Position numbers and translations under genes: made by a program. From the UHGV virus genome UHGV-0313764: a stretch of DNA of 46,129 nucleotides. The stretch is one strand, 5' to 3'. Under the pieces are notes generated by a model, which made no database searches, was not told the origin of the DNA, and saw only the letters and a program-made list of their open reading frames with translations. Below, in pieces: positions 20,634 to 45,153 of the stretch. The stretch comes from a virus. How positions within the stretch are numbered: position 1 is the stretch's first letter; every line of letters starts with the position of its first letter.

Positions 20634-20673
20634 CCTGAATTTGACTGATGTTGATTATATCATCTCAGTGGTG

Positions 20674-20702
20674 TTGACACCTGCGAGGTGGTGATGTAGA
20701 TT
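20674..20702 (+). promoter_or_regulatory. sigma70-like promoter (TTGACA-17-TAGATT), promoter-family member
   Basis: GGTGTTGACA cctgcgaggtggtgatg TAGATT. It drives the plus-strand moron cassette. Confidence 0.6.
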
Positions 20703-20737
20703 CAAATCATCGAAACGAGATATGAATGAGGTGAGTT

Positions 20738-21031
20738 ATGAAAATTAAAATGTTGATTGCATCTGCTTTACTGGTTTCTTCCTTTTCCGTCAGCGCAACT
20801 TCAGAGATGTGCAAAAACATCGGAGAAATTGCCATGAATACCGCCGATGTTCGCGACAACGGTATCAGTAAGAATCTTGCCGAGGTGGTAGTAAAAGGCT
20901 CAGCAAAAAACAACGAATCAGCAGAAATAATCGGCCTTGCTATCGTAGAAATGGTTTATGCACGCAAGGATATGACAAAAGAGCAATTGCGTGATGTATC
21001 TGTTGCTTTGTGCGAAAAGAATGGAATGTAA
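20738..21031 (+). CDS. small secreted protein (signal peptide)
   Basis: N-terminal MKIKMLIASALLVSSFSVSA followed by a TSE cleavage-like site. First gene of the moron cassette. Confidence 0.5.
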   Translation: MKIKMLIASALLVSSFSVSATSEMCKNIGEIAMNTADVRDNGISKNLAEVVVKGSAKNNESAEIIGLAIVEMVYARKDMTKEQLRDVSVALCEKNGM

Positions 21032-21063
21032 TATAAACAAGTTATTAACAGTTGAGGTTAGCT

Positions 21064-21258
21064 ATGGACGTTGTTATTTTGTTGTTTTTTGTTGGTTTGG
21101 TGATATTTGCGTACCTTCTGCCATCCTTTGTGGCATTGCAAAGAAAGCATACAAATACGACCGCAATCTGTGTGCTAAATATTCTTGTCGGATGGAGTTT
21201 TGTTGGGTGGGTTGCAGCACTTGTTTGGGCATTAGTTAAGAGTGACAACAAGAAATGA
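21064..21258 (+). CDS. superinfection immunity (Imm-like) small inner-membrane protein
   Basis: ATG at 21064 with GAGG RBS. Sequence LPSFVALQRKHTNTTAICVLNILVGWSFVGWVAALVWAL matches the Imm_superinfect family pattern (LPS..A..RKH.N..AIfvLN.lLGWt.iGWv.AliWAl). Confidence 0.5.
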   Translation: MDVVILLFFVGLVIFAYLLPSFVALQRKHTNTTAICVLNILVGWSFVGWVAALVWALVKSDNKK

Positions 21259-21398
21259 ACGAACAAACAAAAGCAGACCTGATTTTCTACACTGATTTGT
21301 ATGTCGATGCGGGTTACGACTATGAAGAAGCTGAACGCATGGCGAAAGACTTGCTTCGTGTGATTGGTGTGATTTTTGATGAGGATAAGGTGATATGA
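21255..21398 (+). CDS. hypothetical small protein (47 aa)
   Basis: ATG at 21255. Its stop overlaps the next ATG (ATGA coupling). Confidence 0.25.
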   Translation: MNEQTKADLIFYTDLYVDAGYDYEEAERMAKDLLRVIGVIFDEDKVI

Positions 21399-21589
21399 GT
21401 CAGTGGATTAAGTGTAGTGAGCGGATGCCAAACGAAGAAGATGTTTTGGTTTATTGCTCAGACACAAAAGAGCAGATGGTTGGATTCCATAAGGGGAAAG
21501 GACTATTCCAATTTTTCTATATGAATGGAGTTGAAGGAGTCTGTGAGCCAACATACTGGATGCCACTACCGCAGCCACCACAAGAATAA
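21395..21589 (+). CDS. DUF551-like phage protein
   Basis: 64 aa, MSQWIKCSERMP...YWMPLPQPPQE. The W....E.LP... YWMPLP.PP pattern is typical of DUF551. Confidence 0.45.
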   Translation: MSQWIKCSERMPNEEDVLVYCSDTKEQMVGFHKGKGLFQFFYMNGVEGVCEPTYWMPLPQPPQE

Positions 21590-21591
21590 AA

Positions 21592-21620
21592 CAAAGCCCC
21601 TTTCGGGGCTTTTTCTTTAT
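21592..21620 (+). terminator. Rho-independent terminator closing the moron cassette
   Basis: Hairpin AGCCCC-tttc-GGGGCT followed by TTTTCTTTAT. Confidence 0.6.
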
Positions 21621-25708: not shown

Positions 25709-25737
25709 TTGACGTAGATTGACGGCATGTTTATAGT
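25709..25737 (+). promoter_or_regulatory. sigma70-like promoter TTGACG-17-TATAGT (promoter-family member)
   Basis: TTGACGTAGATTGACGGCATGTT TATAGT, followed by AATGACGTAGAA. It drives the 25777-28229 island. Confidence 0.6.
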
Positions 25738-25776
25738 AATGACGTAGAAACAAAAATAAATGTTAGAGGTGATGAG

Positions 25777-25965
25777 ATGAAAGATGAATTTATTGATTAT
25801 GACGTTAAACGCCAAGAAATGGCTTCTGATGCAACGTTGCGCGATTATTTTGCCGCAAAAGCAATGCAATCTCTATTAATTACATCACCAAATATGGGTT
25901 ATGGCGAGAAGGCTAAACATGCTTACCTTATCGCAGAAAGAATGATGGAGGCGAGAATCAAATGA
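25777..25965 (+). CDS. hypothetical protein (62 aa)
   Basis: RBS AGAGGTGATGAG then ATG. First gene of the island. Confidence 0.45.
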   Translation: MKDEFIDYDVKRQEMASDATLRDYFAAKAMQSLLITSPNMGYGEKAKHAYLIAERMMEARIK

Positions 25966-26300
25966 AAGATGATTTCAAAGGCACAAAAGGTCCGTGGCAG
26001 GTTTTACCAGAAGAAGTAGATAAGCCATACATCAGAATCAGAGGCACAATTATTGGTCATCGATATAAGGTGGCAAATGTATTAACACCTGTTTATGAAA
26101 ATGTTCATGCCAGAGAGGCTGATGAAACGCGTGCAAATGCAAAGTTAATAGCCGCAGCACCAGAGTTACTTGAAGCTCTTCGTCAGATTCGCGATTATGT
26201 TGAGGATGTTTGCGCAGTATCGTCGGATGATTTTCATGAGGAACATCCATTAAATCTGGCGAACAAAGCAATCAAGAAAGCATTAGGAAAGAAACAATGA
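25962..26300 (+). CDS. conserved phage protein, FKGTxGPW...ANAxLIAAAPELL family (paralog 1)
   Basis: 112 aa. Shares FKGT(K/P)GPW, NA.L(I/L)AA(A/S)P(E/D)LL and (A)(I/V)(K/N)KALG(K/E) motifs with 37526..37816. Confidence 0.5.
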   Translation: MKDDFKGTKGPWQVLPEEVDKPYIRIRGTIIGHRYKVANVLTPVYENVHAREADETRANAKLIAAAPELLEALRQIRDYVEDVCAVSSDDFHEEHPLNLANKAIKKALGKKQ

Positions 26301-27106
26301 AGACACTAAGCAAAATCTACTCAGACAAAGAAACGCGCAACGGCATCGCTGTCAACAAAACCTATCTCGTGCCAGTGGAGCAAATCTATCTTGAGCCGGG
26401 ATACAACATCCGTGAAGCAGACGAGCAACACGTTGAATATTTCGCTCAGTGCTGGGAATCAGGCCAACCATTACCAGCATTAACGGTTATTCCAGATGAG
26501 AAGGGAATCCGCATTCTTGATGGTCAACATCGCTATCTCGGCGCATTGCGTGCCATTGAGCGCGGCGCGCCAATCGTTCGCATTGAGTGCAAGGATTTCA
26601 CTGGCGATGAGGCGGACAAAATCGCCTTCATGGTGTCATCCAGTCAGGGCAAGCAACTTGACCCGTTTGAGCGCGCAAAGGCTTACACGCGACTGAAAGG
26701 CTTTGGCTGGACGAATGAAGAAATCGCCAAGAAGGTAGGGCGCTCAGTATCTGACGTGCAAATGCATCTGTCACTGGGTGATGTTCCGGCGGAAGTAAAG
26801 GCGCGCATCAGCGCCGGACAAATCAGCTATGCAAATGCCGTAGCGGTAACGCGCGAACATGGCGATGATGCGGTTAAAGTTATCGACGAGGCAGTGGAAG
26901 AGGCCAAAGCACAAGGCAAGGATAAGGTCACGGCAAAGGTGCTGAAGTCAAAAAAGATTAAGCCAGTAGATCGCCTGATTGAGTTACTGAAGCCAGCTGA
27001 CCATGTGATTCTTCCTGCTGGTCATGTAGTTGCAGAGGATGAGGAATTCATCCAGATTCCTGTTACTGACATTCACGAGGTCATGGCAATTCTGGAGAAG
27101 ATGTGA
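26297..27106 (+). CDS. ParB-like nuclease domain (ParB/Srx N-terminal) protein with HTH
   Basis: 269 aa. Motif ILDGQHRYLGALRA (ParB N-domain GxxRxxA-type) and HTH WTNEEIAKKVGRSVSDVQMHL. No ParA partner is present. Confidence 0.55.
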   Translation: MKTLSKIYSDKETRNGIAVNKTYLVPVEQIYLEPGYNIREADEQHVEYFAQCWESGQPLPALTVIPDEKGIRILDGQHRYLGALRAIERGAPIVRIECKDFTGDEADKIAFMVSSSQGKQLDPFERAKAYTRLKGFGWTNEEIAKKVGRSVSDVQMHLSLGDVPAEVKARISAGQISYANAVAVTREHGDDAVKVIDEAVEEAKAQGKDKVTAKVLKSKKIKPVDRLIELLKPADHVILPAGHVVAEDEEFIQIPVTDIHEVMAILEKM

Positions 27107-27357
27107 TGAGTAAGTATGAAGAACTCGACGCAATGATTATGGATGAGCTTGATTATATTGAGCCAATGACGTTCATGGCTATTCATTTCTCTGGAGGCAT
27201 TCACAGCGGAATACATGCAGAGTGTGAAAAGCTGGCTACAAAACCGCATGAAGGTTTTCGTGTTCTTGACCGCAGGTTGCAAGCGCTAAGAAAGAAAGGC
27301 CTTATTGTATCTCATGGTGCAAGCAAAGGATGGGTGAAGGTAAATCATGAACGCTGA
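27103..27357 (+). CDS. hypothetical protein (84 aa)
   Basis: ORF with ATGA overlap to the ParB-like gene. Confidence 0.4.
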   Translation: MMSKYEELDAMIMDELDYIEPMTFMAIHFSGGIHSGIHAECEKLATKPHEGFRVLDRRLQALRKKGLIVSHGASKGWVKVNHER

Positions 27358-27520
27358 ACAATTCATCGAAAAACAACTTCGTGCCAAGTTGCCTGAAATC
27401 GACCAGATGGCAATTGATGCGGCGATTCAGTACTACAAGCGAAATCAGAGCGCAAAGAAGGGAGGCATTTTTGAAGAATGCCTGAAGGTTGCAAAACAGC
27501 ACATGATTAAGGTGAAGTGA
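27347..27520 (+). CDS. hypothetical small protein (57 aa)
   Basis: ATG at 27347. Coupled to its neighbours by overlapping stop/start codons. Confidence 0.3.
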   Translation: MNAEQFIEKQLRAKLPEIDQMAIDAAIQYYKRNQSAKKGGIFEECLKVAKQHMIKVK

Positions 27521-27696
27521 TGGAATTAACTGATTTAAAAGTTGGAGACAAGATAATCATTCCGGAATATGACCCGCTACCTTGCGTAGTTGAGAAGGTA
27601 GATATTGAGGACAAAATTCAACCAGTATATGTCCGATGGGAAGACGGAACCGCGACATGGCCTGAGCCTAAATATAAATTTGAGGTGATCAAATGA
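27520..27696 (+). CDS. hypothetical small protein (58 aa)
   Basis: ATG at 27520 (ATGA overlap). Its stop overlaps the ATG of the clamp-like gene. Confidence 0.3.
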   Translation: MELTDLKVGDKIIIPEYDPLPCVVEKVDIEDKIQPVYVRWEDGTATWPEPKYKFEVIK

Positions 27697-28229
27697 AACT
27701 AAAAATCAGCAAACTATTACTTGAATCAGCATTAATATTTCAGGCGCGCAATGATGTGCGCTACTACCTGAACGGCATCTGCTTCATGCCTGATGGTCGT
27801 ATTGCCTCAACTGATGGTCATCGCGCATTCATTGGTGGCAGTCATGATAATAAGCTGACAGAAAATGTGATTATCAAGATTGGCAAGTCGCCAACAAAAC
27901 GCTATGAATACGCCATAATTGATACCAAGTCGAAAATTGCAACGTATCATGATAAGGCTGGCGCGATGGTTGGTACTGGTATCTGCGAAGAGATTGATGG
28001 TCGATTCCCTGATATTGACCGCATCATTCCTCAGCAGACCTCACCAACAGAGGAAATTGACTTCAACGCTGGCTATCTTGTGGATGTCGAGAAATCTGCT
28101 AAGCTGTTTAATCCTAAATTCTGTGGTGTCAAATTTGAACTGAATGGAAATACAAATGCAGCAGCTTGCTGTCTTAGTGCGCCATCTGGCGAGATTGCAA
28201 AGATTGTTGTTATGCCTGTGCGTCTGTAG
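27693..28229 (+). CDS. truncated DNA polymerase III beta sliding-clamp (DnaN) homolog
   Basis: 178 aa. Motifs as I recall them from E. coli DnaN domain II and the C-terminus: DVRYYLNG (identical), ASTDGHRAF vs VATDGHRLAV, DGRFPDIDRIIP vs DGRFPDYRRVLP, KFCGVKF vs KFRGVRL, and C-terminal VVMPVRL vs VVMPMRL. It is about half the length of DnaN (366 aa). Confidence 0.6.
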   Translation: MKLKISKLLLESALIFQARNDVRYYLNGICFMPDGRIASTDGHRAFIGGSHDNKLTENVIIKIGKSPTKRYEYAIIDTKSKIATYHDKAGAMVGTGICEEIDGRFPDIDRIIPQQTSPTEEIDFNAGYLVDVEKSAKLFNPKFCGVKFELNGNTNAAACCLSAPSGEIAKIVVMPVRL

Positions 28230-28232
28230 CAA

Positions 28233-28265
28233 TAAAAAACCCGCATTATGCGGGTTTTATTTACT
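28233..28265. terminator. bidirectional Rho-independent terminator
   Basis: Hairpin CCCGCA-tta-TGCGGG flanked by AATAAAAAA and TTTTATTTAC. Confidence 0.6.
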
Positions 28266-28502: not shown

Positions 28503-29573
28503 TTACACCGGAGTTTGCGTGCCGTAGCCGTTGAACACTTTGGATTTGCCGGAGAAATCGCGGCGAACCTGAAGCCCCATAGCAGACCACACGAGGAAGT
28601 TGAAATTAGCGTGCGGAGTGGTGCGTGGCTCTGCATAGGTGGATACCGGCTGAGCAACACGCGGACGGATGTACATGTCGTTGCGAACGTAGCCAACGAA
28701 ATGGTTACCAGTCAGCAGGAAGTTGGTGCCAATCTTACCAATGCGACCATTGCCGAACTGCGTGATGTACTGCTCAACGGTGCCACCTTTGAAGCCTGCC
28801 GCATCAGAATACGGACGCATGAAGCTGCGACGCACTGCCGGGGAAACCCACAGAGTCACCTGCTCAAATACGTTCTGCGCATCCAGAATAGCCTGGAAAT
28901 CCTGATTGAAGAAGGTCACGATTTCATCTGGCGTTGCGGTTTGCAGGTCGATATTCAGGCCGCCGGAAGCATTCAGGTTAACCTGAACAGTGTTCGGGTG
29001 GTTGGTGATGCCGTAGCCAGTGTAAACGCCGTTCACGTTCAGAGTCTGGTCACCAGTCAGCAGATACTGCGCCATATCGGAACGCAGGTTAAAGGTGACG
29101 TTAGCCTGATCGTCCAGCAGTGAGTCAAAACCTTCGGACTGCATACCCAGCAGTTCTCGCCATTCGCGGCCGTAGCCAGTTTTGAAGATTGGAATCACAT
29201 CTCCAGTGTAATCGTAGCGAGTTTTATCCAAATCTTCCGGCTCCTGACCAGACAGGGTGCGAACAACCTTGCCAGCATCGGAAGCGATGCGGCTGATTGC
29301 CACAGTCTTACCAATATTGATGTTTGCTGCGATGCCCATCAGGTCAGCCATCATGTCCTGACCAGCTTCGTTGCGGAAAACGCGGGTGGTGACGTTGTCA
29401 ACGTCGCGCCAGTAATCTTTCGTTACCAGTGCGGTAGCGTTAACGCCATAGGTTTTCGCCAGTTCAGCTTCTGCATCGCAGAACACTTTACGGTCGATGG
29501 TAAGATGTTTCCACTGGTCAGCCACCACTGCGGAGTTGGCTACCAGGTCTTTGGTAAAAATAATCTTTTCCAT
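28503..29573 (-). CDS. major capsid protein
   Basis: 356 aa. Position is immediately after the decoration gene and the protease-scaffold gene (lambda-like C-D-E order). Confidence 0.7.
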   Translation of the reverse strand: MEKIIFTKDLVANSAVVADQWKHLTIDRKVFCDAEAELAKTYGVNATALVTKDYWRDVDNVTTRVFRNEAGQDMMADLMGIAANINIGKTVAISRIASDAGKVVRTLSGQEPEDLDKTRYDYTGDVIPIFKTGYGREWRELLGMQSEGFDSLLDDQANVTFNLRSDMAQYLLTGDQTLNVNGVYTGYGITNHPNTVQVNLNASGGLNIDLQTATPDEIVTFFNQDFQAILDAQNVFEQVTLWVSPAVRRSFMRPYSDAAGFKGGTVEQYITQFGNGRIGKIGTNFLLTGNHFVGYVRNDMYIRPRVAQPVSTYAEPRTTPHANFNFLVWSAMGLQVRRDFSGKSKVFNGYGTQTPV

Positions 29574-33968: not shown

Positions 33969-34038
33969 TCTACGTCAATAAGTATTGACTAAATGATGTA
34001 GATTGGTCAACAATAATTTTCGAAAAGGAGTAGTAAAT

Positions 34039-34233
34039 ATGCCAAGACCACGACGAGAGCCGATGGACATTATCACCAGCATTGTGGAGAAGCGACAACC
34101 GCTGACACTCCGTGATGTTCGCTACTTTGCCCGTTGCTATGTGGCACTGGCTGATATGCCAAAGGATGAGATGTATGATTTGATTCGTGAGAATTTTAAT
34201 GTTGATGAAAATAACCGGGTGACGACAAAATGA
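34039..34233 (+). CDS. hypothetical protein (64 aa)
   Basis: ATG at 34039 with AAGGAG RBS. Confidence 0.45.
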   Translation: MPRPRREPMDIITSIVEKRQPLTLRDVRYFARCYVALADMPKDEMYDLIRENFNVDENNRVTTK

Positions 34234-34721
34234 AAAAATGGAAATACCTGAAAGGTTATGAGGATGATTTTGCTGGCCATGACACGGCTTGCCTTGTAGT
34301 TAAGTCAGGAAGTACTGGTGAGATTTTCTATCTAAGCATAGATTACGCTGGTCGCATTGAAGTGATTGAGGGTTGCGGGGATGTTGTTATTGCATACCGC
34401 GAGCCAATTACCGACGAGCAAGACCTCAACGATTGCATTGGTGCGCCGGAAGCAGATGCAACAGAGCAACTCATCACCGAACGCGGAAGTCGCTACGGCA
34501 AATTCAAAGATGGCGCTGAAATCATGCAGGAGTTGAAAGACGTAATGCGCGAGATGGATGGATGGCATAATCTGACACCAAGCCAACGCGAGGCGCTCGA
34601 CATGATTCAGCACAAGATTGGGCGCATCCTGAATGGCGACCCGACATATGACGATAGCTGGAAAGATATTGCTGGCTATGCGACGTTAATTGTTAATGAA
34701 CTGAACGGAGAGATTAAATAA
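34230..34721 (+). CDS. hypothetical protein with C-terminal all-alpha NTP-pyrophosphohydrolase-like (DUF6378-like) region
   Basis: 163 aa. C-terminal pattern ERGSRYGKF...W..LTPSQREALDMIQHKIGRIL resembles the phage DUF6378 / MazG-like all-alpha family. Confidence 0.35.
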   Translation: MKKWKYLKGYEDDFAGHDTACLVVKSGSTGEIFYLSIDYAGRIEVIEGCGDVVIAYREPITDEQDLNDCIGAPEADATEQLITERGSRYGKFKDGAEIMQELKDVMREMDGWHNLTPSQREALDMIQHKIGRILNGDPTYDDSWKDIAGYATLIVNELNGEIK

Positions 34722-35029
34722 TGTCATTCTGCGACATCACCATCGCGCAACGAAACGCGAACTATACCAATATTGCTGACACTTCCGCACAACTGGTATC
34801 ACTGAACAGCGACGGCAGTGCAGTGCTGAAAATCGGCACGGAAACAGCGCAATTCATCGTGCAGAATCTGTCACAGGCGAACGCGAAACAGGTGCTAATT
34901 AGCACTGGTAGCGTGCTGTTTCTGGCAGGTAATTACAATGCACCGAACCTTGAGTGTTCGCTGGTGCGCATCGTTGAGGCTGCGGTTGAGGAATCTGTTG
35001 ATGAACCAACAACGCTGCCAGCAGAGTGA
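34721..35029 (+). CDS. hypothetical protein (102 aa)
   Basis: ORF with ATGA-type overlap to its neighbours. Confidence 0.35.
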   Translation: MSFCDITIAQRNANYTNIADTSAQLVSLNSDGSAVLKIGTETAQFIVQNLSQANAKQVLISTGSVLFLAGNYNAPNLECSLVRIVEAAVEESVDEPTTLPAE

Positions 35030-35159
35030 GCCACCAAAACCATCGGCGTGGTGTGAGAAAATGGAGCGCAATGCAAAAGATGGTGATGAGGCTTATGCTT
35101 ATTTCCAGCTGAAACAGATGTGGAAGCAGAGGGAAAACTCAGAGCAAACAAATTAAATA

Positions 35160-35186
35160 CAAGCCCCATTACGGGGCTTTTTTCAT
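35160..35186 (+). terminator. Rho-independent terminator
   Basis: Hairpin AAGCCCC-atta-CGGGGCTT followed by TTTTCATCC. Confidence 0.55.
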
Positions 35187-37157: not shown

Positions 37158-37188
37158 TTGACGTAGATTGAGCGGTGATGCATAGTAT
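37158..37188 (+). promoter_or_regulatory. sigma70-like promoter TTGACG-N17/19-(C)ATAGTAT (promoter-family member)
   Basis: TTGACGTAGATTGAGCGGTGATG CATAGTAT, followed by CTACATCA (inverted GTAGAT). Confidence 0.5.
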
Positions 37189-37218
37189 CTACATCAAATG
37201 ATGAGCGAGGTGATGAAG

Positions 37219-37371
37219 ATGAATCCACGCAATGTTACCTTTAGCAACGAATACGTATTTAATTCTCGTGAGTACCATTTTGCAAAGCGCCGCAACGAGG
37301 TTAAGCGTCTTATGGCCTGTGGATACACGAAGAAACGTGCGCAACAATTAGCAAAGAAGAATGGATATTGA
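37219..37371 (+). CDS. hypothetical small protein (50 aa)
   Basis: ATG at 37219 with GAGGTGATG RBS. Confidence 0.35.
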   Translation: MNPRNVTFSNEYVFNSREYHFAKRRNEVKRLMACGYTKKRAQQLAKKNGY

Positions 37372-37373
37372 TT

Positions 37374-37517
37374 ATGGTAATGATCAAATTCAAAGAAAAC
37401 GGACGCTGCGGAGTGTTCAACCTTGAGCAAGTCAAAATCCGTCCGTGCGGAAAAGTGGTTGCGCCATTTGGTCTGGTGCAGATGCGTGAAGTTGAGATTG
37501 TTGAATATATTAAGTGA
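37374..37517 (+). CDS. hypothetical small protein (47 aa)
   Basis: ATG at 37374 immediately after the previous stop. Confidence 0.3.
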   Translation: MVMIKFKENGRCGVFNLEQVKIRPCGKVVAPFGLVQMREVEIVEYIK

Positions 37518-37525
37518 GGTTGGTG

Positions 37526-37816
37526 ATGGAAGAATTTAAAGGTACGCCGGGTCCGTGGTTTTTTGATGAGACATTTAATGTTTATGAAGGTGACAGAGAT
37601 GGACATATTTGCACCGTCACGTCATGGCTTGATGAGTCAACTGCGGATGCTAATGGCTTCTTGCTTGCGGCATCTCCTGACCTGTTATCCTCGCTACAGC
37701 AACTACTGGAAATATACGACGACCACTCAGGCAAAGTCTGGACAACATCAAGCAAGCGCCGCGCTCTGGATAGTGCGCGCGCGGCGGTTAATAAAGCATT
37801 GGGAGAAACAAAATGA
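37526..37816 (+). CDS. conserved phage protein, FKGTxGPW...AAxPxLL family (paralog 2)
   Basis: MEEFKGTPGPW...ANGFLLAASPDLLSSLQQLL...AVNKALGE. Shared motifs with 25962..26300. Confidence 0.5.
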   Translation: MEEFKGTPGPWFFDETFNVYEGDRDGHICTVTSWLDESTADANGFLLAASPDLLSSLQQLLEIYDDHSGKVWTTSSKRRALDSARAAVNKALGETK

Positions 37817-38028
37817 GCTACCACCTGCAATGGCTTGAGTCTATGCACACGCTACATGGCTCTGTGGAAATTCTCTATGTTGTTGATGGCTATCAAATAC
37901 AGAGAAAATTTGATGATAGTAAAGTTGGCGAGCCAATAAAAGCAAAGACGCTTGAGGATTGCATCGACATTGCAATAGCAAACGAATGGAAGCCGCTAAC
38001 AATGAAAGACGTAAAGCCAAATTATTGA
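37813..38028 (+). CDS. hypothetical protein (71 aa)
   Basis: ORF with ATGA overlap. Confidence 0.35.
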   Translation: MSYHLQWLESMHTLHGSVEILYVVDGYQIQRKFDDSKVGEPIKAKTLEDCIDIAIANEWKPLTMKDVKPNY

Positions 38029-38040
38029 TGGAGAACAAAA

Positions 38041-38613
38041 ATGAAACTTATCGACCTGTTAGTTCAAGAATTACCTAGGCGTGGTGGGTGGCCTGAGGGT
38101 GTGACTCATATCGGACAAGATTATGACCGCGAACTTATGTTTTATGGTAGAGGGATAGTAATGACAGGAATCTTCCTTGATGAACTAGCAGCTGACCACA
38201 GAAAGTGTGGTGATGCTGGAGCAGGAATTACTCAACAACAATACGAATCAGCACTGGGAGCATCTCAAAATTCAGCATGGAACGGCGGAGGTTTACCACC
38301 AGTGGGGTGTGAATGTGAGTGTCATGTTGATGAGGGTGTAATTCATTGCATTGTGGTTGGTTATGATTTTGACGGAAAGGCTGTTGTGATGCGCAACGTT
38401 CCTGCCTGCAAATACTTCTCCATTCAAGCTAACTCAGGGCGCATAAAACCGCTGCGCACAGAAGCAGAAAGGAAGCGCGACGAGGCAGTAGAAGCCATTG
38501 GCTTTTATATGCCGGAATTTATTCCCGATACACCAAATGAGTTTTACCATGCAAAGAAAATTTACGACGCCATCGCAGCAGGCAAAATTCCCGGCGTGAA
38601 ACTGGATGATTAA
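38041..38613 (+). CDS. hypothetical protein (190 aa)
   Basis: Long ORF. Contains a Cys cluster GCECECH. No family recognised. Confidence 0.45.
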   Translation: MKLIDLLVQELPRRGGWPEGVTHIGQDYDRELMFYGRGIVMTGIFLDELAADHRKCGDAGAGITQQQYESALGASQNSAWNGGGLPPVGCECECHVDEGVIHCIVVGYDFDGKAVVMRNVPACKYFSIQANSGRIKPLRTEAERKRDEAVEAIGFYMPEFIPDTPNEFYHAKKIYDAIAAGKIPGVKLDD

Positions 38614-38687
38614 AACAATATTCAGCATCGTAGAGATATTGTGCTACGCGATAATAATATTTGTTCTGTGCATGCTGATAAGATAAA

Positions 38688-38720
38688 ACCAAGCCCTCAC
38701 TTGGAGGGCTTTTTGTTATT
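38688..38720 (+). terminator. Rho-independent terminator
   Basis: Hairpin AAGCCCTC-acttgg-AGGGCTT followed by TTTGTTATT. Confidence 0.55.
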
Positions 38721-39702
38721 GCTCTGGTTTTCCTCCGAGCTTTCTAATAATTTCTGCAGCAACGCACGGATCAACATTAAAAAATTCAGTCGCCCCATCG
38801 AAACCTGACAACCCAGCATTTAAGTCCTTTAGCTTCCTATGCGCAGCGCCTTCCGCTTTCCTTGCTTTGTAATAGCTTTCGAATGAGAACTGACACAACA
38901 AAGAGATAGAAAGACCTGATTTTTTAGTTAGTTGCTGAATCCTTAGCGGAACGTTATTTGATAAACCTATCTTTATCATTCCATCTGCTTCCAACAAATA
39001 AACCATAGTCTTTTTGAATGGGTTTCTTCCTGCGCATTTTGCACACCCGCGACCCTTGGCGTGATGGCCAGCAAACTGGCGAAAACTGCCATGAATAGGG
39101 CATATTATTTCAACCATGCTATTCATTCCACTAAAAACCACCTCATCATATAAATATTTCCCGCCATGGGCCTCTTTACATCTTGCTATGAAGGATTCTG
39201 TATCCATGCCACCTTTTCCACTGCAAACCCTGCACCCAATATTCCCTCTCAAGTGATCTCTTGCTATTTGCTGGAATTCACCATGTTTTTTGCACCTTAT
39301 GGTTATCATTGACAGCATTCCAGAGTATTTGGTTGGTGAATAATCATAAATATCATGGTTTTTACTGGGAATCATATCCATAAACTCATCATGACTGTAC
39401 CCGTTATGCATTCCCCTGCCGGGCCTGCACTTTCTGCATCCGTTGCAGCCGTTGAGGTGATCATTTGGCGTCTGTTTAAATAACACATCATGCTGAATAC
39501 ATCTAATGATTACTGGCGATTTCCTTTTGATGTATTTAGTTTCTGAATAGTCAAATTTATCGCCGTGAATTAACTTAGCGCGTGAAATGAAATCTTCTGT
39601 GGTAGGTCTTTTTGCCATCATTAACCCCGTAGCAGGCTCGTAGATTGAGGACTGCAGCAGGGTGTCTACGTTCACCTTTTCGCCTGGCCGGACTAGCTGC
39701 AC
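38716..39702 (-). CDS. T5orf172 (GIY-YIG-like) domain protein with three N-terminal Cys/His zinc-ribbon-like repeats; putative homing-type endonuclease
   Basis: Three repeats of about 55 aa each (...KYIKRKSPVIIRCIQHDVLFKQTPNDHLNGCNGCRKC; ...MITIRCKKHGEFQQIARDHLRGNIGCRVC; ...VEIICPIHGSFRQFAGHHAKGRGCAKC), plus a C-terminal MVYLLEADGMIKIGLSNN...L T5orf172-type module. Confidence 0.55.
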   Translation of the reverse strand: MQLVRPGEKVNVDTLLQSSIYEPATGLMMAKRPTTEDFISRAKLIHGDKFDYSETKYIKRKSPVIIRCIQHDVLFKQTPNDHLNGCNGCRKCRPGRGMHNGYSHDEFMDMIPSKNHDIYDYSPTKYSGMLSMITIRCKKHGEFQQIARDHLRGNIGCRVCSGKGGMDTESFIARCKEAHGGKYLYDEVVFSGMNSMVEIICPIHGSFRQFAGHHAKGRGCAKCAGRNPFKKTMVYLLEADGMIKIGLSNNVPLRIQQLTKKSGLSISLLCQFSFESYYKARKAEGAAHRKLKDLNAGLSGFDGATEFFNVDPCVAAEIIRKLGGKPEQ

Positions 39703-39713
39703 TTATGATTATA

Positions 39714-40670
39714 TCACTTCGCTTTGTGAGCTGAAAGCCACTTATCTCTTGCTGATACCATCCGGTCAAGAGAAGATTCAAGCATGATCACGTTACCATT
39801 TTCATCTAACAGGCATGGCGTTTGACCACAATGACACCGAAATCTATTTCCGTCCTTACTGTAAAACTCCTCCACCTGTTCTGGCGAGTACGCCTTAGAA
39901 TGTCTGATGGCGTGAGTTTGCCTGGTTGTTGGTAATAGCGCCGACACCCAAAATAGGGCACTATTTAGCCCTAAAGCAATCCTTGATTCCTGAATTTCGT
40001 CAGACTGCGACTTACGTAAAATGCCAGTAAGCTCGGTTTGGGCAATATTTTTTGCTCGCGATTCACTTACACCAACGCGCTTAATGATGTCTGATTCAAT
40101 ATCTCTCGGATTAGAACCAACAGCGATAGCATTCATGATCACCTGAGACAAATCATTACGTGCCGCGTCTCCAATTCCAACCCAATCGCTGTAAGTGGAG
40201 GCATTGGCAATAGACAGGCGCTGCAAATATGGCTCAGAGTAAATAATGTCTGCAATTGAACGGCGCTCAGCATAGAGTGGAGACATGGCCGCCAGTTGCT
40301 GTTGCGCCTCAACCGTACCAGCTGAATAGGCGTCAGAGACATAAATTGACATCCAGAACTGACCTGCATTCATCGGTTGTGTGTCGTCAAGCAGGATTTC
40401 ATCAATTAGCTGTTGCAATGCCTCATTAAATTGAGCTGCCCTAGCGGCTGAAAAATCATACCTGTAACCATAGGCATCAATGGAGTTAATCGCGGCAACT
40501 GGAATTGACCTGAATAAGTCTATGAGTGACGATTTAAGGCGCTTGTATCGCGCCTCAATCTGTTTGTTTGCCTTGCTTATTCTCCTGTTAGCGCCAACAG
40601 GGTCTGTTTTGCTGGTTGGTATCTTCGGGCCAACCAGTCTGGCGTTAACCTTAAAGATTTTGATTTTCAT
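39714..40670 (-). CDS. head morphogenesis protein (SPP1 gp7 / Mu F-like)
   Basis: Follows the portal gene. The C-terminal motif ...[19 protein letters not shown] is typical of the gp7 family. The internal start MKIKIF avoids overlap with the portal gene. Confidence 0.55.
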
Positions 40671-42054
40671 CGTCAGGATTACCCTCTGTGACGATCTGAA
40701 TTTCTTCAATCGGCTCCATACCAACCATGCCGCGAGCCTCATCGACGGTCAGCAACGCAGATTGGCCAGCATCAAAGAACGACTTGTTCGCAGTGGCGAG
40801 CTTGGACAGTAATTCAGCCTTATCCAGTTCCGATGGTGCCAACAAATCATCCCACTTAACCTTGTAGCCATTTGTCGGGGCTTTATCGACAATGCCGAAC
40901 TGAATCATGCGCTCAACGAACATTGAGATGACATAGTCAACCCATGTTTCGCGACGTTGCTTAGCGGTCATCGCCTCCTGCATCTTGTCTTCGTCGCTCG
41001 CAAGGCGTCCGGTTTGCTGCCCGAAAATGACGGTGAACGGAAGCGCCATAGATGCGGCGAACTGGTTGGCTGCTACCTCCCATGTTGGTTTCGGGTCGGC
41101 TGGCGTTACAGCGAGAACCTTTGCGTCAGCGCCCATTGTGAACATAGCGGCGTCGATGCCTGAGTTTAGCGCCTCAATGTTCTCATTCATGATGTCGGTT
41201 AGCTCTTCGATATCGACACCCATTGATTGAGCCAGACTTGCTGGCGTTACGTTATCCTTCGTGTAGTTAACAGCCAGTTGGCGGCTTGCATTCTTCAGAA
41301 AGCCTTCCGCAGAACTACCGGAAACTTTAGCCATGTCGATGAGGCTGTTGTAACCAGCACGCAGCATTGGGATGCCGCTGAACATACTGCCATCGAAGCT
41401 ACCCTCAGCCAGAATGATGATGCGCTCTGGATGAATCTGCACGGAACGCTCAGGCTTGCCGTCGCTGTCGAAGTCTTCCACGGCGCTTTCCTGATATTCG
41501 TACATCTCAGGCATTCCGTAGTCTTCGCTGGTTTCGTCGTTATTCCACGCACTGACTTTGAGCTGCTCCTCCCATACCGGAATAAAGCGAACGATGGATT
41601 TATCTTTAATGCGGCGGGTTTTGGTGACGTCGACAGGCTCACTCCACTGGCGACCATCGCGGATTTGCAGGATAACAGCGGAATAGCGGTTGATGGCGTT
41701 GCGCTTGTCAGCCTCTTTGATGAATGGGTATGCGCGCTTCATCATGTCGTTGATGGACAGCTCCCACGGCGATGCGGCCTCATCATCAGCTCCATCTTCA
41801 ACCACTTCAGGGTATTTCTGCCAACATTTATTAATAATGCGATTAATACCGGCAGCGGCTGCTGGATGTCGCTCGTAGGCATAACGGAACATCTCGGCGG
41901 TGATTTCCTGTGGGTAGCCACACTCCTGCCAGAGGCGATCATGCTTCTGGTCAAGATTCTTCCCGCCAGCACAAAGCCGCTGTTGCTGAAGCGCCCGATT
42001 ATTGTTCGCCACGCGGTCGCGTATGTAGGCGTTTAGTGCATCAATTTTGGACAT
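40651..42054 (-). CDS. portal protein
   Basis: 467 aa, downstream of terminase and followed by the head morphogenesis gene. Size and position are typical. Confidence 0.65.
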
Positions 42055-43187: not shown

Positions 43188-43217
43188 AGTGATATCTCCG
43201 ATAATCCTGATGTAGAT

Positions 43218-43246
43218 ATACTATGCGCTCGGTGTAGATTGGTCAA
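43218..43246 (-). promoter_or_regulatory. sigma70-like promoter (TTGACC-17-TAGTAT) on the minus strand, divergent from the 43285 promoter
   Basis: Minus-strand read: TTGACC aatctacaccgagcgca TAGTAT. The GTAGAT / ATCTAC motif is present twice. Confidence 0.5.
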
Positions 43247-43284
43247 GTACGGTGATGCTAGTTTATCGACAACAATAATAAATG

Positions 43285-43313
43285 TTGACGTAGATATGGT
43301 GGTGACGTAGAAT
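43285..43313 (+). promoter_or_regulatory. sigma70-like promoter TTGACG-17-TAGAAT (promoter-family member)
   Basis: TTGACGTAGATATGGTGGTGACG TAGAAT. Confidence 0.6.
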
Positions 43314-43347
43314 CATCTTATCGAAAAGAGATTAAGGAACAAGAGGA

Positions 43348-43503
43348 ATGTTTGAGACTAAAAAAGAATGCGAAGCGTACATTGCCGAAACTTATGGTTC
43401 TGACTACGTTAAATTTGGCATCGTTACCGCCCAGAAAGTCGGCCCAACAATCGCCAAGATGCTTGGTATTAAAGAAGGTTACTACCCATCAAATGCCTAC
43501 TAA
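43348..43503 (+). CDS. hypothetical small protein (51 aa)
   Basis: ATG at 43348 with strong AAGGAACAAGAGGA RBS. Confidence 0.4.
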   Translation: MFETKKECEAYIAETYGSDYVKFGIVTAQKVGPTIAKMLGIKEGYYPSNAY

Positions 43504-43705
43504 TTACATGCCGAGATGCCTTCGTGAAATACCGAAGGCGAAAGTGAAGCCAAGAAATCAAGCGATAAAGGAGGCAAAGATCGAGGCTTTCAATATTGCT
43601 ATTTCGATAATAAAAGATAGATGTAGAGATGAGAAGTCTGAACGCGTTAAATCAAACATGTATGCAGCTGTGAGTGATATATCAAGATTGAGAGATGAGC
43701 TTTAA
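43493..43705 (+). CDS. hypothetical small basic protein (70 aa)
   Basis: ATG at 43493 overlaps the previous stop. Followed by a terminator. Confidence 0.3.
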   Translation: MPTNYMPRCLREIPKAKVKPRNQAIKEAKIEAFNIAISIIKDRCRDEKSERVKSNMYAAVSDISRLRDEL

Positions 43706-43732
43706 GCCCTCAAGCGAGGGCTTTATTTTTAT
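43704..43732 (+). terminator. Rho-independent terminator
   Basis: Hairpin AAGCCCTC-aagc-GAGGGCTT followed by TATTTTTAT. The TerL stop lies within the T-tract. Confidence 0.6.
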
Positions 43733-45153
43733 CTCCCGCGTCGGATTAGCATCCCGCTACCACGCTGAACGATATGATCATTGAGTGCGTAGCGAACAGC
43801 ATCCCAGTAGTGGTTATATGCATCAACAATATCGGTCAGCACATTCCCGGTCAGCTTATCAACCTTATAGCTGTACATTGCCGCTTCATTCTGCATTTCC
43901 TTGCATCGCTCGTGAATGACAATGCTGTCGCAGCCTCGCAGCCACGTTACGCCATCCTCAACGCTTCCTGGCCATTTCGTGCATGGGTGAATGTCAAATC
44001 CAGAGCGCTTGATGTGACTGATAGTTTCAGGGCGCGCACAGTCGGCATACCATCTTGCACGCTTAGCCATTGGGAATGATTGCTCCATCGCAGCTGGCGT
44101 GTCAGTAATCTCAAGCCCAACCTTGCCGTACTCGCGATTAATATAAATGTTGCGCCGTCCACCTGGCAATTCTTCGATATAAACCTCAACCATTGCGGTG
44201 GGGTCCGTACTGAAACCGAAGTCCATCCCGAAGTATGGGCCATGCCATTCAGATTTGACCTCAAAGTTATCGACACGCCACTTGCCCCCGAAGACCTGCT
44301 CGTCGCTGCGCTTGTTAAATTTGCCCTCATACACCCAAAGGTAGCGATCATAATCCACAGCTTTCATCTGGTTCATGTGCTGCTTAAGTTCTTCCGTGAA
44401 CCACGGGTTGTGGACGTAGTTAACATTAACAACAACGATGTCATCATCCTGATATATGCCGTCAACCATCTTGCCGATGTAAGGCTCAACAAAGTTGGTC
44501 CACGTCGGGTCCGTCTCTTTATTTGGGTTAAAAACAATAATAATTTCAGAACCAGAGGCGCGCACCGTTGGGATTAACGTATCCCATGAAATCTGGCTGA
44601 TATTCTCAGATTCTTCACAGAATACATCTGTAAGTCCAGCCATACCCTTGATGGCGGTTATATTTCTCCACAGACCACGGAAAACAAACTTTGATTTCGT
44701 TGTGTGGTGGGTTATCTCACCATCAACGCAACGATATTCCTGAGCGTGGCCTTTTCTGTTTATCTCATCAACCAGTTCGGCATAGCTTGATTCTTTGATT
44801 GAGTTCTGTATCTCACGGAAGCATCCGACGCGGCTGTTGCGGAATCTTGCCTTTTCTATAAGGTAAGAAACAACGTTAGCCGTCTTTCCGCTGCCCCTAC
44901 CCCCATAGAACACCTTGAAACGGCGAGGATAAAGCAGCAACTCCATTCGCTCAGGGATTAATATTGTTGGCTTCTCGTTTGTTTCTGACACGCCAGTGGC
45001 TGTCATTTTAAGGCACTTAACCACATTCGGTGTACCGTCAGGCAATAGCTTGTCGACAATACCGAAAACAGAAGACTCTGGTTTTGCAGTTGAATTTCCT
45101 ACTGCTTGCTCAAGTTTTTCTATCGCAACGCTTGAGAGTCTTTTACGCGCCAT
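43729..45153 (-). CDS. terminase large subunit
   Basis: 474 aa. Walker A GGRGSGKT. C-terminal acidic nuclease-like region. Position next to the TerS-like gene. Confidence 0.75.
   Translation of the reverse strand: MARKRLSSVAIEKLEQAVGNSTAKPESSVFGIVDKLLPDGTPNVVKCLKMTATGVSETNEKPTILIPERMELLLYPRRFKVFYGGRGSGKTANVVSYLIEKARFRNSRVGCFREIQNSIKESSYAELVDEINRKGHAQEYRCVDGEITHHTTKSKFVFRGLWRNITAIKGMAGLTDVFCEESENISQISWDTLIPTVRASGSEIIIVFNPNKETDPTWTNFVEPYIGKMVDGIYQDDDIVVVNVNYVHNPWFTEELKQHMNQMKAVDYDRYLWVYEGKFNKRSDEQVFGGKWRVDNFEVKSEWHGPYFGMDFGFSTDPTAMVEVYIEELPGGRRNIYINREYGKVGLEITDTPAAMEQSFPMAKRARWYADCARPETISHIKRSGFDIHPCTKWPGSVEDGVTWLRGCDSIVIHERCKEMQNEAAMYSYKVDKLTGNVLTDIVDAYNHYWDAVRYALNDHIVQRGSGMLIRRGR

Follow-up and report, generated by a model that had tools for sequence, protein, structure and literature searches.

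What is a seven-gene, plus-strand island, with a promoter and a terminator of its own, doing among the minus-strand head genes of a virulent siphophage, and is it an anti-defence or host-takeover island, as a sequence-only reading of the locus had suggested? The island lies in UHGV-0313764, a Skate-like E. coli/Salmonella phage of the Skatevirus cluster, the whole 46,129-nt stretch of which was analysed and is called the window in the following. Conservation of the locus at the nucleotide level extends to 199 phage records, and the core or variable status of its genes was determined across 80 IMG/VR loci. Of the placement originally proposed, between capsid and connector genes, the capsid side holds, with the major capsid gene at the right; the “connector”, however, does not mean the portal, because the portal gene is far off (Table 1). 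We see about an even chance that the core of the island is an early operon for phage DNA replication and genome management, equipped with cargo slots, and not an anti-defence locus.

Table 1. Features of the island and its surroundings in the window
Feature	Position	Strand	Remarks
Sigma-70-type promoter	25709-25737	+	-35 TTGACG 25709-25714, 17-nt spacer, -10 TATAGT 25732-25737
Two direct TGACGTAGA copies	25710-25718; 25740-25748	+	over -35 and just downstream of -10; candidate operator pair
62-aa ORF	25777-25965	+	variable slot; phrog_2201, E = 1e-9
112-aa ORF	25962-26300	+	variable slot; phrog_1273, E = 1e-23
269-aa ParB/KorB/Noc-like protein	26297-27106	+	core gene
84-aa ORF	27103-27357	+	variable slot; phrog_7185, E = 3e-30
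57-aa ORF	27347-27520	+	core gene; phrog_4439, E = 2e-22
59-aa ORF	27517-27696	+	variable; between 57-aa ORF and mini-clamp
178-aa mini-beta (mini-clamp)	27693-28229	+	core gene; truncated DnaN homologue
Bidirectional intrinsic terminator AAAACCCGCATTATGCGGGTTTT	28236-28258	both	10-bp-stem hairpin
65-aa ORF	between terminator and capsid gene	minus	right flank, convergent on island
Major capsid protein gene	28503-29573	minus	right flank, beyond 65-aa ORF
39-aa ORF	left flank	minus	
Two small ORFs, lipoprotein/membrane protein	left flank	minus	annotation of relatives
Further head/tail-region genes incl. HK97 gp10-family protein	left flank	minus	annotation of relatives
Portal gene	40651-42054		distant from island

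The architecture described for the island was borne out. Its seven ORFs span 25777-28229 and overlap by 4-11 nt at all six junctions, and the 62-aa ORF has a good Shine-Dalgarno sequence, AGAGGTGA. The TTGACG-17-TATAGT promoter is present and matches the consensus at 10 of 12 positions. Consensus promoter matches in the region are not above chance (6 found, 7.0 expected from shuffles); the island promoter is credible because it belongs with a group of like promoters marked by TGAYGTAGA, not because of the consensus match alone. The terminator hairpin (-16.2 kcal/mol; z = -4.15 against shuffles) was assigned to both strands because an A-run precedes and a T-run follows it, in agreement with phage Skate, the annotation of which has terminators on both strands at the corresponding position, and it ends the island as well as the convergent transcript of the 65-aa ORF and the capsid gene. 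Host RNA polymerase with sigma-70 would transcribe the island as a terminator-bounded, translationally coupled operon, presumably early in infection, to judge from the promoter type.

The designation “accessory island” fits some of these genes and not others. The 62-, 112-, 84- and 59-aa ORFs are sporadic across about 50 related loci, but the ParB-like gene, the 57-aa ORF and the gene of the truncated clamp homologue, mini-beta or mini-clamp, are present in all of them. The 62-aa ORF occurs in few relatives only, e.g. 64795_sal3, and the 112-aa ORF sporadically, at 48-59% identity; a homologue of the 84-aa ORF (86% identity) is carried by swi2 and Akira and lacking from most relatives, and one of the 59-aa ORF, which has only a weak PHROG match (E = 0.004), was seen solely in phage HC6. 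The 57-aa ORF, by comparison, was found in all Skatevirus/Roufvirus-type loci and in the distant locus L077, is located directly upstream of the mini-clamp in most relatives, and has a dN/dS of 0.041. Other occupants of the slots among relatives are a C5 DNA methyltransferase (Pfam PF00145) in HC6, a PHROG “anti-restriction protein” (phrog_14587) in 64795_sal3, and an EaC-like gene. The four variable ORFs are the sole part of the island that resembles accessory cargo.

These slots bear directly on the proposal that the island in its entirety serves anti-defence or host takeover, with the ParB-like protein acting in DNA modification or anti-defence. In common with anti-defence islands and with moron or accessory cassettes of phage genomes, the island is oriented against the surrounding late, structural genes, has its own promoter and terminator, includes variable small ORFs (four of the seven, without known function), and holds a methyltransferase or “anti-restriction” gene in the slots of relatives; moreover, phage ParB-methyltransferase fusions may serve anti-defence, according to a survey of the ParB-CTPase fold (PMC12704722). 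It differs from such islands in that its three defining genes are core, being found in every related locus examined, strongly constrained, and associated with replication modules in other phages. The ParB-like protein has the lowest dN/dS of the proteins tested (0.007; capsid protein, 0.068), contrary to what a fast-evolving anti-defence gene would show, with 99% amino-acid identity across a cluster in which nucleotide identity is about 91%, and its architecture is that of an HTH DNA-binding protein without a fused enzyme domain. A PHROG search of the seven ORFs returned five strong matches, all to function-unknown families, and none to a family labelled anti-restriction or host takeover; PADLOC, the scope of which is defence and not anti-defence systems, gave nothing above noise for the island ORFs. 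According to the BASEL study, moreover, Skatevirus phages show marked sensitivity to Old and to restriction-modification systems. The accessory-island idea is thus upheld for the variable slots only, and we regard an anti-defence or host-takeover function as improbable for the island as a whole.

The assignment of a ParB N-domain and HTH to the 269-aa product is upheld by Pfam (HTH_ParB, 44.1 bits, and KorB, 26.3 bits, both above cutoff; Pfam ParBc did not match), by a sequence match to the solved structure of Spo0J (1vz0, E = 6.5e-13), and by its AlphaFold2 model (pLDDT 86), for which Foldseek returned ParB, KorB and Noc as best matches. The best full-length superposition was with KorB (8qa9_B; TM-score 0.56 normalized by query and 0.70 by target). 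An N-terminal ParB/Srx-fold domain of the DG[QH]HR type is followed by the ParB HTH and a small C-terminal alpha/beta domain; GYN.R, DG[QH]HR..GA and SSQG are conserved in the family. Its earlier description as a ParB-like nuclease found no support; the closest solved structures are those of DNA-binding ParB, KorB and Noc.

A plasmid-like carrier state, in which this product would be the partition protein and parS and ParA would be encoded elsewhere, would be in keeping with its ParB-family sequence and fold and with its RefSeq name, “ParB-like partition protein”. However, as had been noted from the sequence, there is no ParA partner: a ParA-type Walker A motif is absent from every ORF of the window, and no ParA annotation was seen in the portions of relatives' records examined, nor was an integrase or plasmid-maintenance gene. 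A search for parS yielded no repeated palindromic site, and the single 16-bp palindrome decays in relatives. The protein scores below the TIGR00180 cutoff (38.9 vs 58.45 bits), and its CTPase boxes are replaced (GERRxRA by DGQHRYLG, and ENLQR, of the ENxxR type, by SSSQG). A partition role is thus very improbable, and the protein probably acts neither in partition nor as a nuclease. By analogy with KorB or Noc, it may instead be a site-specific DNA-binding nucleotide switch that regulates or organizes the phage genome. It shares with KorB of RK2, ParB and Noc an N-terminal ParB fold and, after it, a ParB/KorB HTH, and with KorB-type regulators and Noc the status of an orphan without ParA; its gene likewise lies in an operon which the product might regulate. 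In contrast to these CTP-dependent DNA clamps, it has lost the CTP-binding boxes, its C-terminal domain is a small alpha/beta unit, neither an operator or parS site nor a KorA/TrbA-like partner was found for it, and its gene resides in a virulent phage and not in a plasmid or chromosome.

Mini-beta is derived from a bacterial beta sliding clamp. The clamp homologue recognized in the sequence-only reading was confirmed at the levels of sequence and structure, although it is truncated (178 aa vs 366 aa for DnaN). Against solved structures, its sequence matched the Enterobacter and E. coli beta clamps (E = 3e-11), aligning to residues 136-288 and 313-365, and E. coli beta clamps were the best Foldseek matches of its AlphaFold2 model (pLDDT 97). 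The motifs DVRYYLNG, TDGHR, DGRFPD, IxFN..Y and VVMPxRL are common to both proteins, the C-terminal VVMPVRL of mini-beta corresponding to VVMPMRL of beta. Relative to DnaN, mini-beta has lost all of domain I, helix 2 of domain II, and the N-terminal half of domain III; what is left is domain II minus that helix, the II-III linker, and the rest of domain III. Its family comprises 160 clusters at 50% identity (E <= 1e-10) and is present in 296 phage records; a literature search retrieved no published study of the family or of this operon.

Could several such 1.5-domain subunits still assemble into a ring around DNA and serve as a processivity factor? The clamp fold and the GenBank name “DNA polymerase III beta subunit” would be compatible with a genuine sliding clamp. 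The two-domain short form of the E. coli protein, beta*, which keeps all of domains II and III, is said to work as a trimer, reportedly from work by Skaliter and Paz-Elizur and colleagues in 1996; mini-beta likewise begins at the boundary of domains I and II, near the start given for beta*, but lacks full domains II and III. The dimer-interface residues I78, F106, I272, L273 and E298-E304 fall in the deleted parts, so that both sides of the known ring-closing interface are gone. Three inner-channel helices would be expected of 1.5 clamp domains, but the predicted structure has two long helices only (7-16 and 126-139) and one short helical turn, the second helix of domain II being a loop in the model. 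The score against the NCBIfam DnaN model is 29 bits (cutoff, 137.65). A DNA-encircling ring of mini-beta therefore appears unlikely, and we consider a true processivity clamp quite improbable, a little more so than a cassette devoted to anti-defence.

What mini-beta has kept is the pocket for clamp-binding motifs. Fourteen of the 18 pocket residues, as listed in PMC11139829, are identical to those of E. coli beta, at an overall identity of 34%, and in an alignment of 113 family members, gathered by similarity to the query and so favouring its conserved motifs, pocket residues account for 11 of the 27 positions that reach >=70% conservation (Fisher p = 2e-6). The pocket may have been retained in part for structural reasons, since no other part of beta clamps in general is as well conserved and since it is situated at the junction of domains II and III. 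A scan of protein termini turned up no clamp-binding motif in any credible phage protein. Mini-beta is most likely a soluble, off-ring pocket module which binds clamp-binding motifs (QLxLF-type) of host replication or repair proteins, candidates being Pol III alpha, epsilon or delta, Hda, MutS/L and translesion polymerases, or of phage proteins. It would either tether such partners to phage replication intermediates or compete with the host clamp for them. Phage inhibitors of the clamp loader or the clamp are represented by N4 gp8 and Twort gp168. Mu MuC and T4 gp45 act via the clamp in late transcription (PMC12867686, PMC7892883). Mini-beta would resemble all four as a phage protein acting on the beta-clamp interaction network in infection; however, the phages known to target the clamp supply a clamp-binding motif or inhibitor of their own or a full ring, and mini-beta represents the pocket side without the ring.

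A decoy or inhibitor would use the same pocket for host takeover, the monomeric module soaking up clamp partners and thereby shutting down or rewiring host replication and repair; this proposal and the replication operon that we prefer have the pocket-binding step in common, and only its direction differs. Conservation of the pocket together with loss of the ring-forming parts is in line with a decoy, as is the reviewed finding that the binding of delta to a monomeric beta variant is about 50 times tighter than to the dimer (PMC11139829). The mini-clamp, with a dN/dS of 0.12, is under purifying selection, yet evolves faster than the other core genes. Dhillonvirus carries a mini-clamp along with an annotated DNA polymerase of its own, the polymerase being most similar to that of phage K1ind1, and could afford to disable Pol III; for the same reason, universal recruitment of host Pol III by the mini-clamp is unlikely. 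On the other hand, the large ORFs scanned in the window and the replication-gene part of the Skate annotation include no DNA polymerase, nor do the parts of Eta and the lambdoid phages examined, so these phages probably need host Pol III and clamp loading, and global sequestration would hurt phages that rely on the host holoenzyme. The lambdoid loci also place the mini-clamp beside replication genes and not beside kil-type host-takeover genes. On balance, a decoy function seems rather unlikely.

Gene context in other phages is in keeping with the replication and genome-management operon. Mini-beta is widespread in phages, usually within replication modules: the gene order is SSB, ParB-like, mini-clamp, helicase in Serratia phage Eta, and primase, dUTPase, Dam, mini-clamp in phage C130_2, and a Vibrio phage has the order Erf ... 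mini-clamp ... RepL, primase. A lambda-CII-like gene, its identity confirmed by Pfam for one representative, directly precedes the mini-clamp in nine of 34 other loci, the lambdoid ones, one of which has the gene of replication protein O directly downstream. The ParB-like gene adjoins the mini-clamp in two diverged lineages, those of Eta (32% identity) and of locus L059 (47%), and in L077 (55%) the two are separated by about 3.5 kb and lie on opposite strands. The two proteins are not obligate partners, since the majority of the distant loci have the mini-clamp but not this ParB-like protein. The conserved three-gene core would serve replication and genome management, its slots taking up variable small genes, and the ParB-like protein would regulate or organize the phage genome by site-specific DNA binding.

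Possible sites for such binding are offered by the TGAYGTAGA motif. All 12 exact copies in the window lie within six promoter regions, and TGACGTAGA with at most one mismatch gave 22 matches (6.4 expected; none of 100 shuffles reached 22). Upstream of the island the motif pair, with its 30-nt spacing, is kept in most of the Klebsiella-type relatives checked, in which nucleotide identity is only 75-78%. In several promoters it shares positions with the -35 or -10 hexamer, and the motif could serve as a promoter element recognized by RNA polymerase or another factor. It is tempting to speculate that the paired motifs at the island promoter and at the five other promoter regions are the sites of the ParB-like protein; if the protein does read TGAYGTAGA, it would be a global regulator of these operons, its own included.

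At the nucleotide level, the island region has matches in 199 phage records. Escherichia phage swi2 ranks first (about 90% identity across 82% of 3 kb), followed by the Salmonella phages Skate, Akira and 64795_sal3 and Shigella phage Sf11. These relatives belong to a group of small virulent siphoviruses termed the "Skatevirus cluster" (second BASEL collection paper). Head and tail genes of the window are encoded on the minus strand and the replication/recombination block on the plus strand. A DNA polymerase was found neither among the large ORFs of the window that were scanned nor among the annotations in the replication-gene part of the record of phage Skate, and replication of the window phage probably relies on host Pol III. 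The HNH or homing-endonuclease-like ORF of 328 aa (phrog_681, phrog_559) adjoins the head morphogenesis and portal genes; positions of HNH genes vary among relatives.

Features of the window referred to in the text
Feature	Position	Strand	Remark
TGAYGTAGA copies	2138-2163		promoter-like region
Primase gene	2970-5303	plus	
Sak4-like annealing protein gene	6424-7266	plus	
Gam-like protein gene	7220-7714	plus	
Helicase gene	8308-10176	plus	
Further cassette	about 20673-21612	plus	hairpin terminator 21593-21612
TGAYGTAGA copy	20692-20700		promoter-like region
Promoter TTGACG-17-TATAGT	25709-25737	plus	island start
TGAYGTAGA copies	25710-25748		promoter-like region
ParB-like gene	26297-27106	plus	269 aa
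57-aa ORF	27347-27520	plus	
Mini-beta gene	27693-28229	plus	178 aa
Terminator hairpin	28236-28258	both	island end
Major capsid gene	28503-29573	minus	
Perfect palindrome TTCAGGTTAACCTGAA	28972-28987		16 bp, in capsid gene
TGAYGTAGA copies	33969-34002		promoter-like region
Further cassette	about 33985-35185	plus	
Further cassette	about 37158-38700	plus	
TGAYGTAGA copies	37159-37196		promoter-like region
HNH or homing-endonuclease-like ORF	38716-39702	minus	328 aa
Portal gene	40651-42054	minus	
TGAYGTAGA copies	43208-43311		promoter-like region
Further cassette	about 43285-43723	plus	hairpin terminator 43704-43723
Large terminase gene	43729-45153	minus	

The sequence-only reading had described an accessory island with a promoter, seven tightly coupled genes and a bidirectional terminator, and these elements are all present where it placed them. 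The seven plus-strand ORFs overlap by 4-11 nt at every junction. The hairpin behind them lies between an A-run and a T-run and is predicted to act as a terminator for both strands (folding energy -16.2 kcal/mol, z = -4.15); both-strand terminators are annotated at the homologous place in the record of phage Skate. Matches to the consensus promoter number six in the region versus 7.0 expected by chance, and a single match is not significant; the island promoter is, however, a member of a promoter family in the window. Several further plus-strand cassettes lie amid the minus-strand structural genes; their promoters are of the same type, and hairpin terminators close at least some of them.

Eighty IMG/VR loci encoding a relative of the last island gene, retrieved with an alignment of 11 sequences of its product (the truncated clamp homologue, henceforth mini-beta), were searched with all island proteins; ParB-like genes in these loci were detected by phmmer on translated ORFs, tblastn having missed the orthologue of Serratia phage Eta. 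The ParB-like gene, the 57-aa ORF and the mini-beta gene occur in all of the approximately 50 region-covering loci of the Skatevirus or Roufvirus type, while the ORFs of 62, 112, 84 and 59 aa occur sporadically. The operon is thus a conserved backbone with cargo slots, and the term "accessory" suits the four small cargo ORFs, but not the three core genes. The 57-aa ORF, for which neither a recognisable domain nor a clamp-binding motif (QLxLF-type) was detected, directly precedes the mini-beta gene in almost every relative, as well as in the remote IMG/VR locus L077.

An anti-defence role had been proposed for the whole island, and the content of the slots supports it in part. In relatives, the slots hold a C5 cytosine methyltransferase (phage HC6; Pfam PF00145), a member of phrog_14587 annotated as "anti-restriction protein" (phage 64795_sal3) and a 207-aa EaC-like protein (Akira and HC6). 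The methyltransferase and the phrog_14587 protein were found in relatives, not in the window, whose cargo belongs to the PHROG families 2201, 1273 and 7185, each of "unknown function". A PADLOC scan of the seven island ORFs returned nothing, and HMM searches, suggested as a check on the anti-defence idea, gave PHROG matches of "unknown function" or DNA metabolism only. The variable slots and the genes of the relatives speak for possible anti-defence cargo; the core is constrained, and the seven ORFs of the window match no known anti-defence or host-takeover family. A reverse-strand cassette amid structural genes is not in itself a reason to assume anti-defence.

Sequence comparison of mini-beta with solved structures identified the beta clamps of Enterobacter and E. 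coli (E = 3e-11), residues 7-153 aligning with beta 136-288 and a second stretch, 119-177, with beta 313-365. The second stretch pairs IDFNAGYLVDV with IGFNVSYVLDV, and the C-terminal VVMPVRL with VVMPMRL. A piecewise alignment assigns mini-beta 1-118 to beta 130-253 (domain II and the II-III linker) and 119-178 to beta 313-366, which forms the final beta-alpha-beta-beta-beta unit of domain III; beta 1-129 (domain I) and 254-312 are without counterpart. At 178 aa, versus about 366 aa for the three-domain DnaN subunit, the protein fails both the curated DnaN model TIGR00663 (29 bits, cutoff 137.65) and Pfam DNA_pol3_beta_2 (15.6 bits, cutoff 27). The clamp homolog named in the sequence-only reading was borne out as to DnaN homology and fold, but it is truncated and scores below the curated cutoff. 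An AlphaFold2 model built with 113 family members (pLDDT 97.0, pTM 0.91) comprises only two long helices (7-16 and 126-139) and one short helical turn, with a loop in place of the second helix of domain II. The top 50 Foldseek matches in the PDB are all beta clamps, nearly all from E. coli (E about 1e-7); E. coli clamps rank first, with query-normalised TM-scores of 0.64-0.67. Among predicted viral structures, Foldseek retrieved numerous phage proteins, about 180-200 aa long, that bear the name "DNA polymerase III beta subunit".

The partner-binding pocket of the clamp consists of subsite I (R152, L155, T172, G174, H175, R176, L177, P242, R246, V247, V360, M362) and subsite II (H175, N320, Y323, V344, M362, P363, M364, R365), and the head-to-tail dimer interface which closes the ring involves I78 and F106 on one side and I272, L273 and E298-E304 on the other (PMC11139829). 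Mini-beta and E. coli beta share 14 of 18 pocket residues, compared with an overall identity of 34%; the pocket of mini-beta includes H43, M174 and P175. Pocket residues account for 11 of the 27 positions that reach at least 70% conservation within the mini-beta family (Fisher p = 2e-6), and pocket positions are more conserved overall (Mann-Whitney p = 9e-7). The dimer-interface residues I78, F106, I272, L273 and E298-E304, on the other hand, all fall within the deleted parts. Judged by these alignments, mini-beta is a clamp derivative that appears to have retained the site for partner binding and lost the ring. Less probably, mini-beta forms a ring-shaped clamp of its own, for which the two-domain beta* form of E. 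coli, described in 1996, is a partial precedent; this would have to be achieved with the known ring-closing interface deleted. Since it fails the curated DnaN model, keeps the pocket and lacks the ring interface, mini-beta, which we regard as a pocket-only derivative, is better not classed among sliding clamp subunits.

When 1.84 billion representative proteins were scanned with HMMER, 160 clusters of the mini-beta family were obtained at 50% identity (E <= 1e-10), most members being 165-215 aa in length, and tblastn located the family in 296 phage records of many lineages and hosts. Its genes frequently reside among replication genes: the order is SSB, ParB-like protein, mini-beta and helicase, with adjoining primase, in Eta; helicase, primase, dUTPase, Dam methylase and mini-beta in phage C130_2; and Erf, mini-beta, then RepL and primase, with intervening genes, in a Vibrio phage. 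A gene for a lambda-CII-like protein lies directly upstream of mini-beta in 9 of 34 other loci, these nine being contigs of lambdoid phages or prophages (L065-L068, L071, L073, L075, L084 and L090), and was confirmed for one representative (Pfam PF05269, E = 6e-36). In L084 a gene for replication protein O (PF04492, E = 5e-24) follows directly downstream, so that mini-beta there stands at the head of a lambdoid replication module. In Dhillonvirus and Kagunavirus, mini-beta is part of a reverse-strand cassette within the head genes, as in the window. The gene upstream of mini-beta in Dhillonvirus was considered as a ParB-like candidate and rejected, as it codes for a protein with nucleotide modification associated domain 5 (Nmad5; Escherichia phage rolling, locus L007, 3129-3938; Pfam E = 8e-56); the Nmad5 and mini-beta genes together make up the Dhillonvirus cassette. 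The dN/dS of mini-beta (0.12) indicates purifying selection which is not extreme.

The idea that phages with mini-beta always lack a DNA polymerase of their own was discarded, as Dhillonvirus "rolling" is annotated with one. Since mini-beta occurs both in phages in which no polymerase was found (the window phage, Eta and the lambdoids) and in Dhillonvirus, Pol III recruitment is unlikely to be its one role throughout. Related proteins are annotated as "RusA-like Holliday junction resolvase" (PHROG 3007; RefSeq, e.g. NC_054649.1). We rejected this assignment because mini-beta has no RusA domain; a true RusA gene lies upstream of the mini-beta gene in one locus, L079. A search of 86 crude gene calls for phage proteins with a clamp-binding motif returned internal matches only, among them one in the HTH of the ParB-like protein (QMHLSL) and one in a doubtful 46-aa ORF, and no convincing partner. 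A literature search for a characterised phage mini-clamp found none.

The second large core gene codes for the 269-aa ParB-like protein, which the sequence-only reading had taken for a ParB N-domain/HTH protein without a ParA partner; fold and HTH were confirmed. The protein matches Pfam HTH_ParB (44.1 bits) and KorB PF08535 (26.3 bits, cutoff 22.3), while the ParBc N-domain model PF02195 matched neither the protein nor the precomputed domains of its homologues. Residues 25 to about 200 align with Spo0J and ParB (E = 6.5e-13), and the AlphaFold2 model (pLDDT 86) retrieves ParB, Spo0J, Noc and KorB in Foldseek at E about 1e-9, the best full-length superposition being with KorB (8qa9_B; target-normalised TM-score 0.70). 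TIGR00180 is not reached (38.9 bits, cutoff 58.45), and none of the curated models for ParB, Noc and DGQHR is matched. Membership in the DGQHR/DndB family was rejected (TIGR03187, 16.1 bits versus a cutoff of 58.85), a short motif alone being in common. In contrast to ParB, with its CTP-binding boxes GERRxRA and ENxxR, the protein has DGQHRYLG and SSSQG; in the alignment, GERRYRA is replaced by GQHRYLG and ENLQR by SSSQG. The replacement motifs GYN.R, DG[QH]HR..GA and SSQG are kept throughout its family, from which we infer a nucleotide pocket that is probably functional but non-canonical. ParB-fold proteins able to bind ATP or GTP besides CTP have been described (2025 survey, PMC12704722).

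A partition role would require a cognate ParA and parS. No ORF of the window contains a ParA-type (deviant) Walker A motif, and no ParA is annotated in the portions of the relatives' records examined. A search for perfect inverted repeats with arms of at least 7 nt and for repeats over the whole window revealed no repeated palindrome, the longest inverted repeats (arms of at least 8 nt) being nearly all terminator hairpins; these searches yielded neither ParA nor a palindromic parS candidate, though a non-palindromic or single parS site may exist. The palindrome TTCAGGTTAACCTGAA in the capsid gene is exact in 23 related loci, and was rejected as a binding site because its symmetry is lost in diverged relatives; it probably arose by chance within the capsid coding sequence. 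A KorA-like partner was not identified either.

The ParB-like protein is 99% identical among phages whose genes share only about 91% DNA identity. Its dN/dS of 0.007 (25 comparisons, dS about 0.48) is ten-fold lower than that of the capsid protein (0.068), and none of the other six genes in the comparison is as constrained. Anti-defence genes usually do not show such extreme constraint, which is typical of proteins that have to match numerous fixed partners or sites on DNA. The gene is located directly upstream of mini-beta also in the diverged lineages of Eta (32% identity) and locus L059 (47%). In L077 (55% identity) it lies about 3.5 kb from mini-beta on the opposite strand, and it is absent from most of the distant mini-beta loci.

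Candidate DNA sites are provided by the motif TGACGTAGA, which is located at the -35 element of the island promoter (25710) and repeated just after the -10 element (25740). The window contains 12 exact copies of its degenerate form TGAYGTAGA, versus about 0.7 expected by uniform sequence arithmetic; with at most one mismatch, TGACGTAGA has 22 matches versus 6.4 expected, a number reached in none of 100 shuffles. All 12 exact copies fall into six promoter-like regions. They are mostly paired, in direct or inverted orientation, some overlapping the -35 or -10 element and others lying outside both; pairs are located at 2138/2155, 25710/25740, 33969/33994, 37159/37188 and 43286/43303. The 30-nt spacing of the island pair is kept in most of the Klebsiella-type relatives checked (75-78% gene identity), and the pair is missing in Eta, L059 and L077, whose ParB-like proteins are distant. 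We read TGAYGTAGA, on the basis of this distribution, as a conserved candidate operator in a putatively co-regulated set of sigma-70 promoters. The shared operator-like promoter family would imply that the island is transcribed early, by the host polymerase. That the ParB/KorB-like HTH protein is the regulator acting at TGAYGTAGA is speculation.

Mechanistically, mini-beta would act away from the ring by binding clamp-binding motifs, and may either recruit or sequester the proteins that carry them. The ParB-like protein would serve as a DNA-bound regulator or organiser. Taken together, the data prompt the tentative proposal, which we consider possible though rather more open to doubt than to belief, that many phage lineages encode soluble, non-ring, pocket-only clamp paralogues, paired in Skate-like phages with a ParB/KorB-like switch reading TGAYGTAGA. 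Candidate lineages may include Skatevirus, Dhillonvirus, Kagunavirus, lambdoid prophages and phages of Vibrio, Acinetobacter and Burkholderia. Such pocket-only modules may take proteins with clamp-binding motifs from the host clamp, and the phage may thereby control which polymerases, repair factors and regulators reach the DNA; the partner in Skate-like phages may be an orphan, non-CTPase DNA-binding switch acting on the operator pairs of early promoters.

The island is a genuine feature. Many sequenced phages carry the locus, and both of its large genes already have annotations, albeit rough and in part wrong ones. The parts worth pursuing are the mini-beta family and its ultra-conserved orphan ParB/KorB-like neighbour. 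Reading mini-beta as a clamp family would correct the propagated "RusA-like Holliday junction resolvase" misannotation, and the label "DNA polymerase III beta subunit" on a 178-aa homologue would need qualifying. The orphan ParB-fold proteins that mobile elements carry pose questions of current interest, for which the ParB-like protein, extremely constrained, from a virulent phage and without canonical CTPase boxes, is a test case made tractable by the conserved candidate operator family in the same genome. The beta clamp is a central hub of bacterial replication and repair as well as an antibiotic target, and the phage strategies known to us are binding of the host clamp or supply of a complete clamp of their own. 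The mini-beta family may represent an uncharacterised class of clamp paralogues. If the proposal holds, mini-beta, a widespread and strongly conserved phage protein, would be a natural minimal pocket scaffold for inhibitor studies, and the pocket-only fragment would constitute a different route by which phages hijack or rewire the clamp interaction network.
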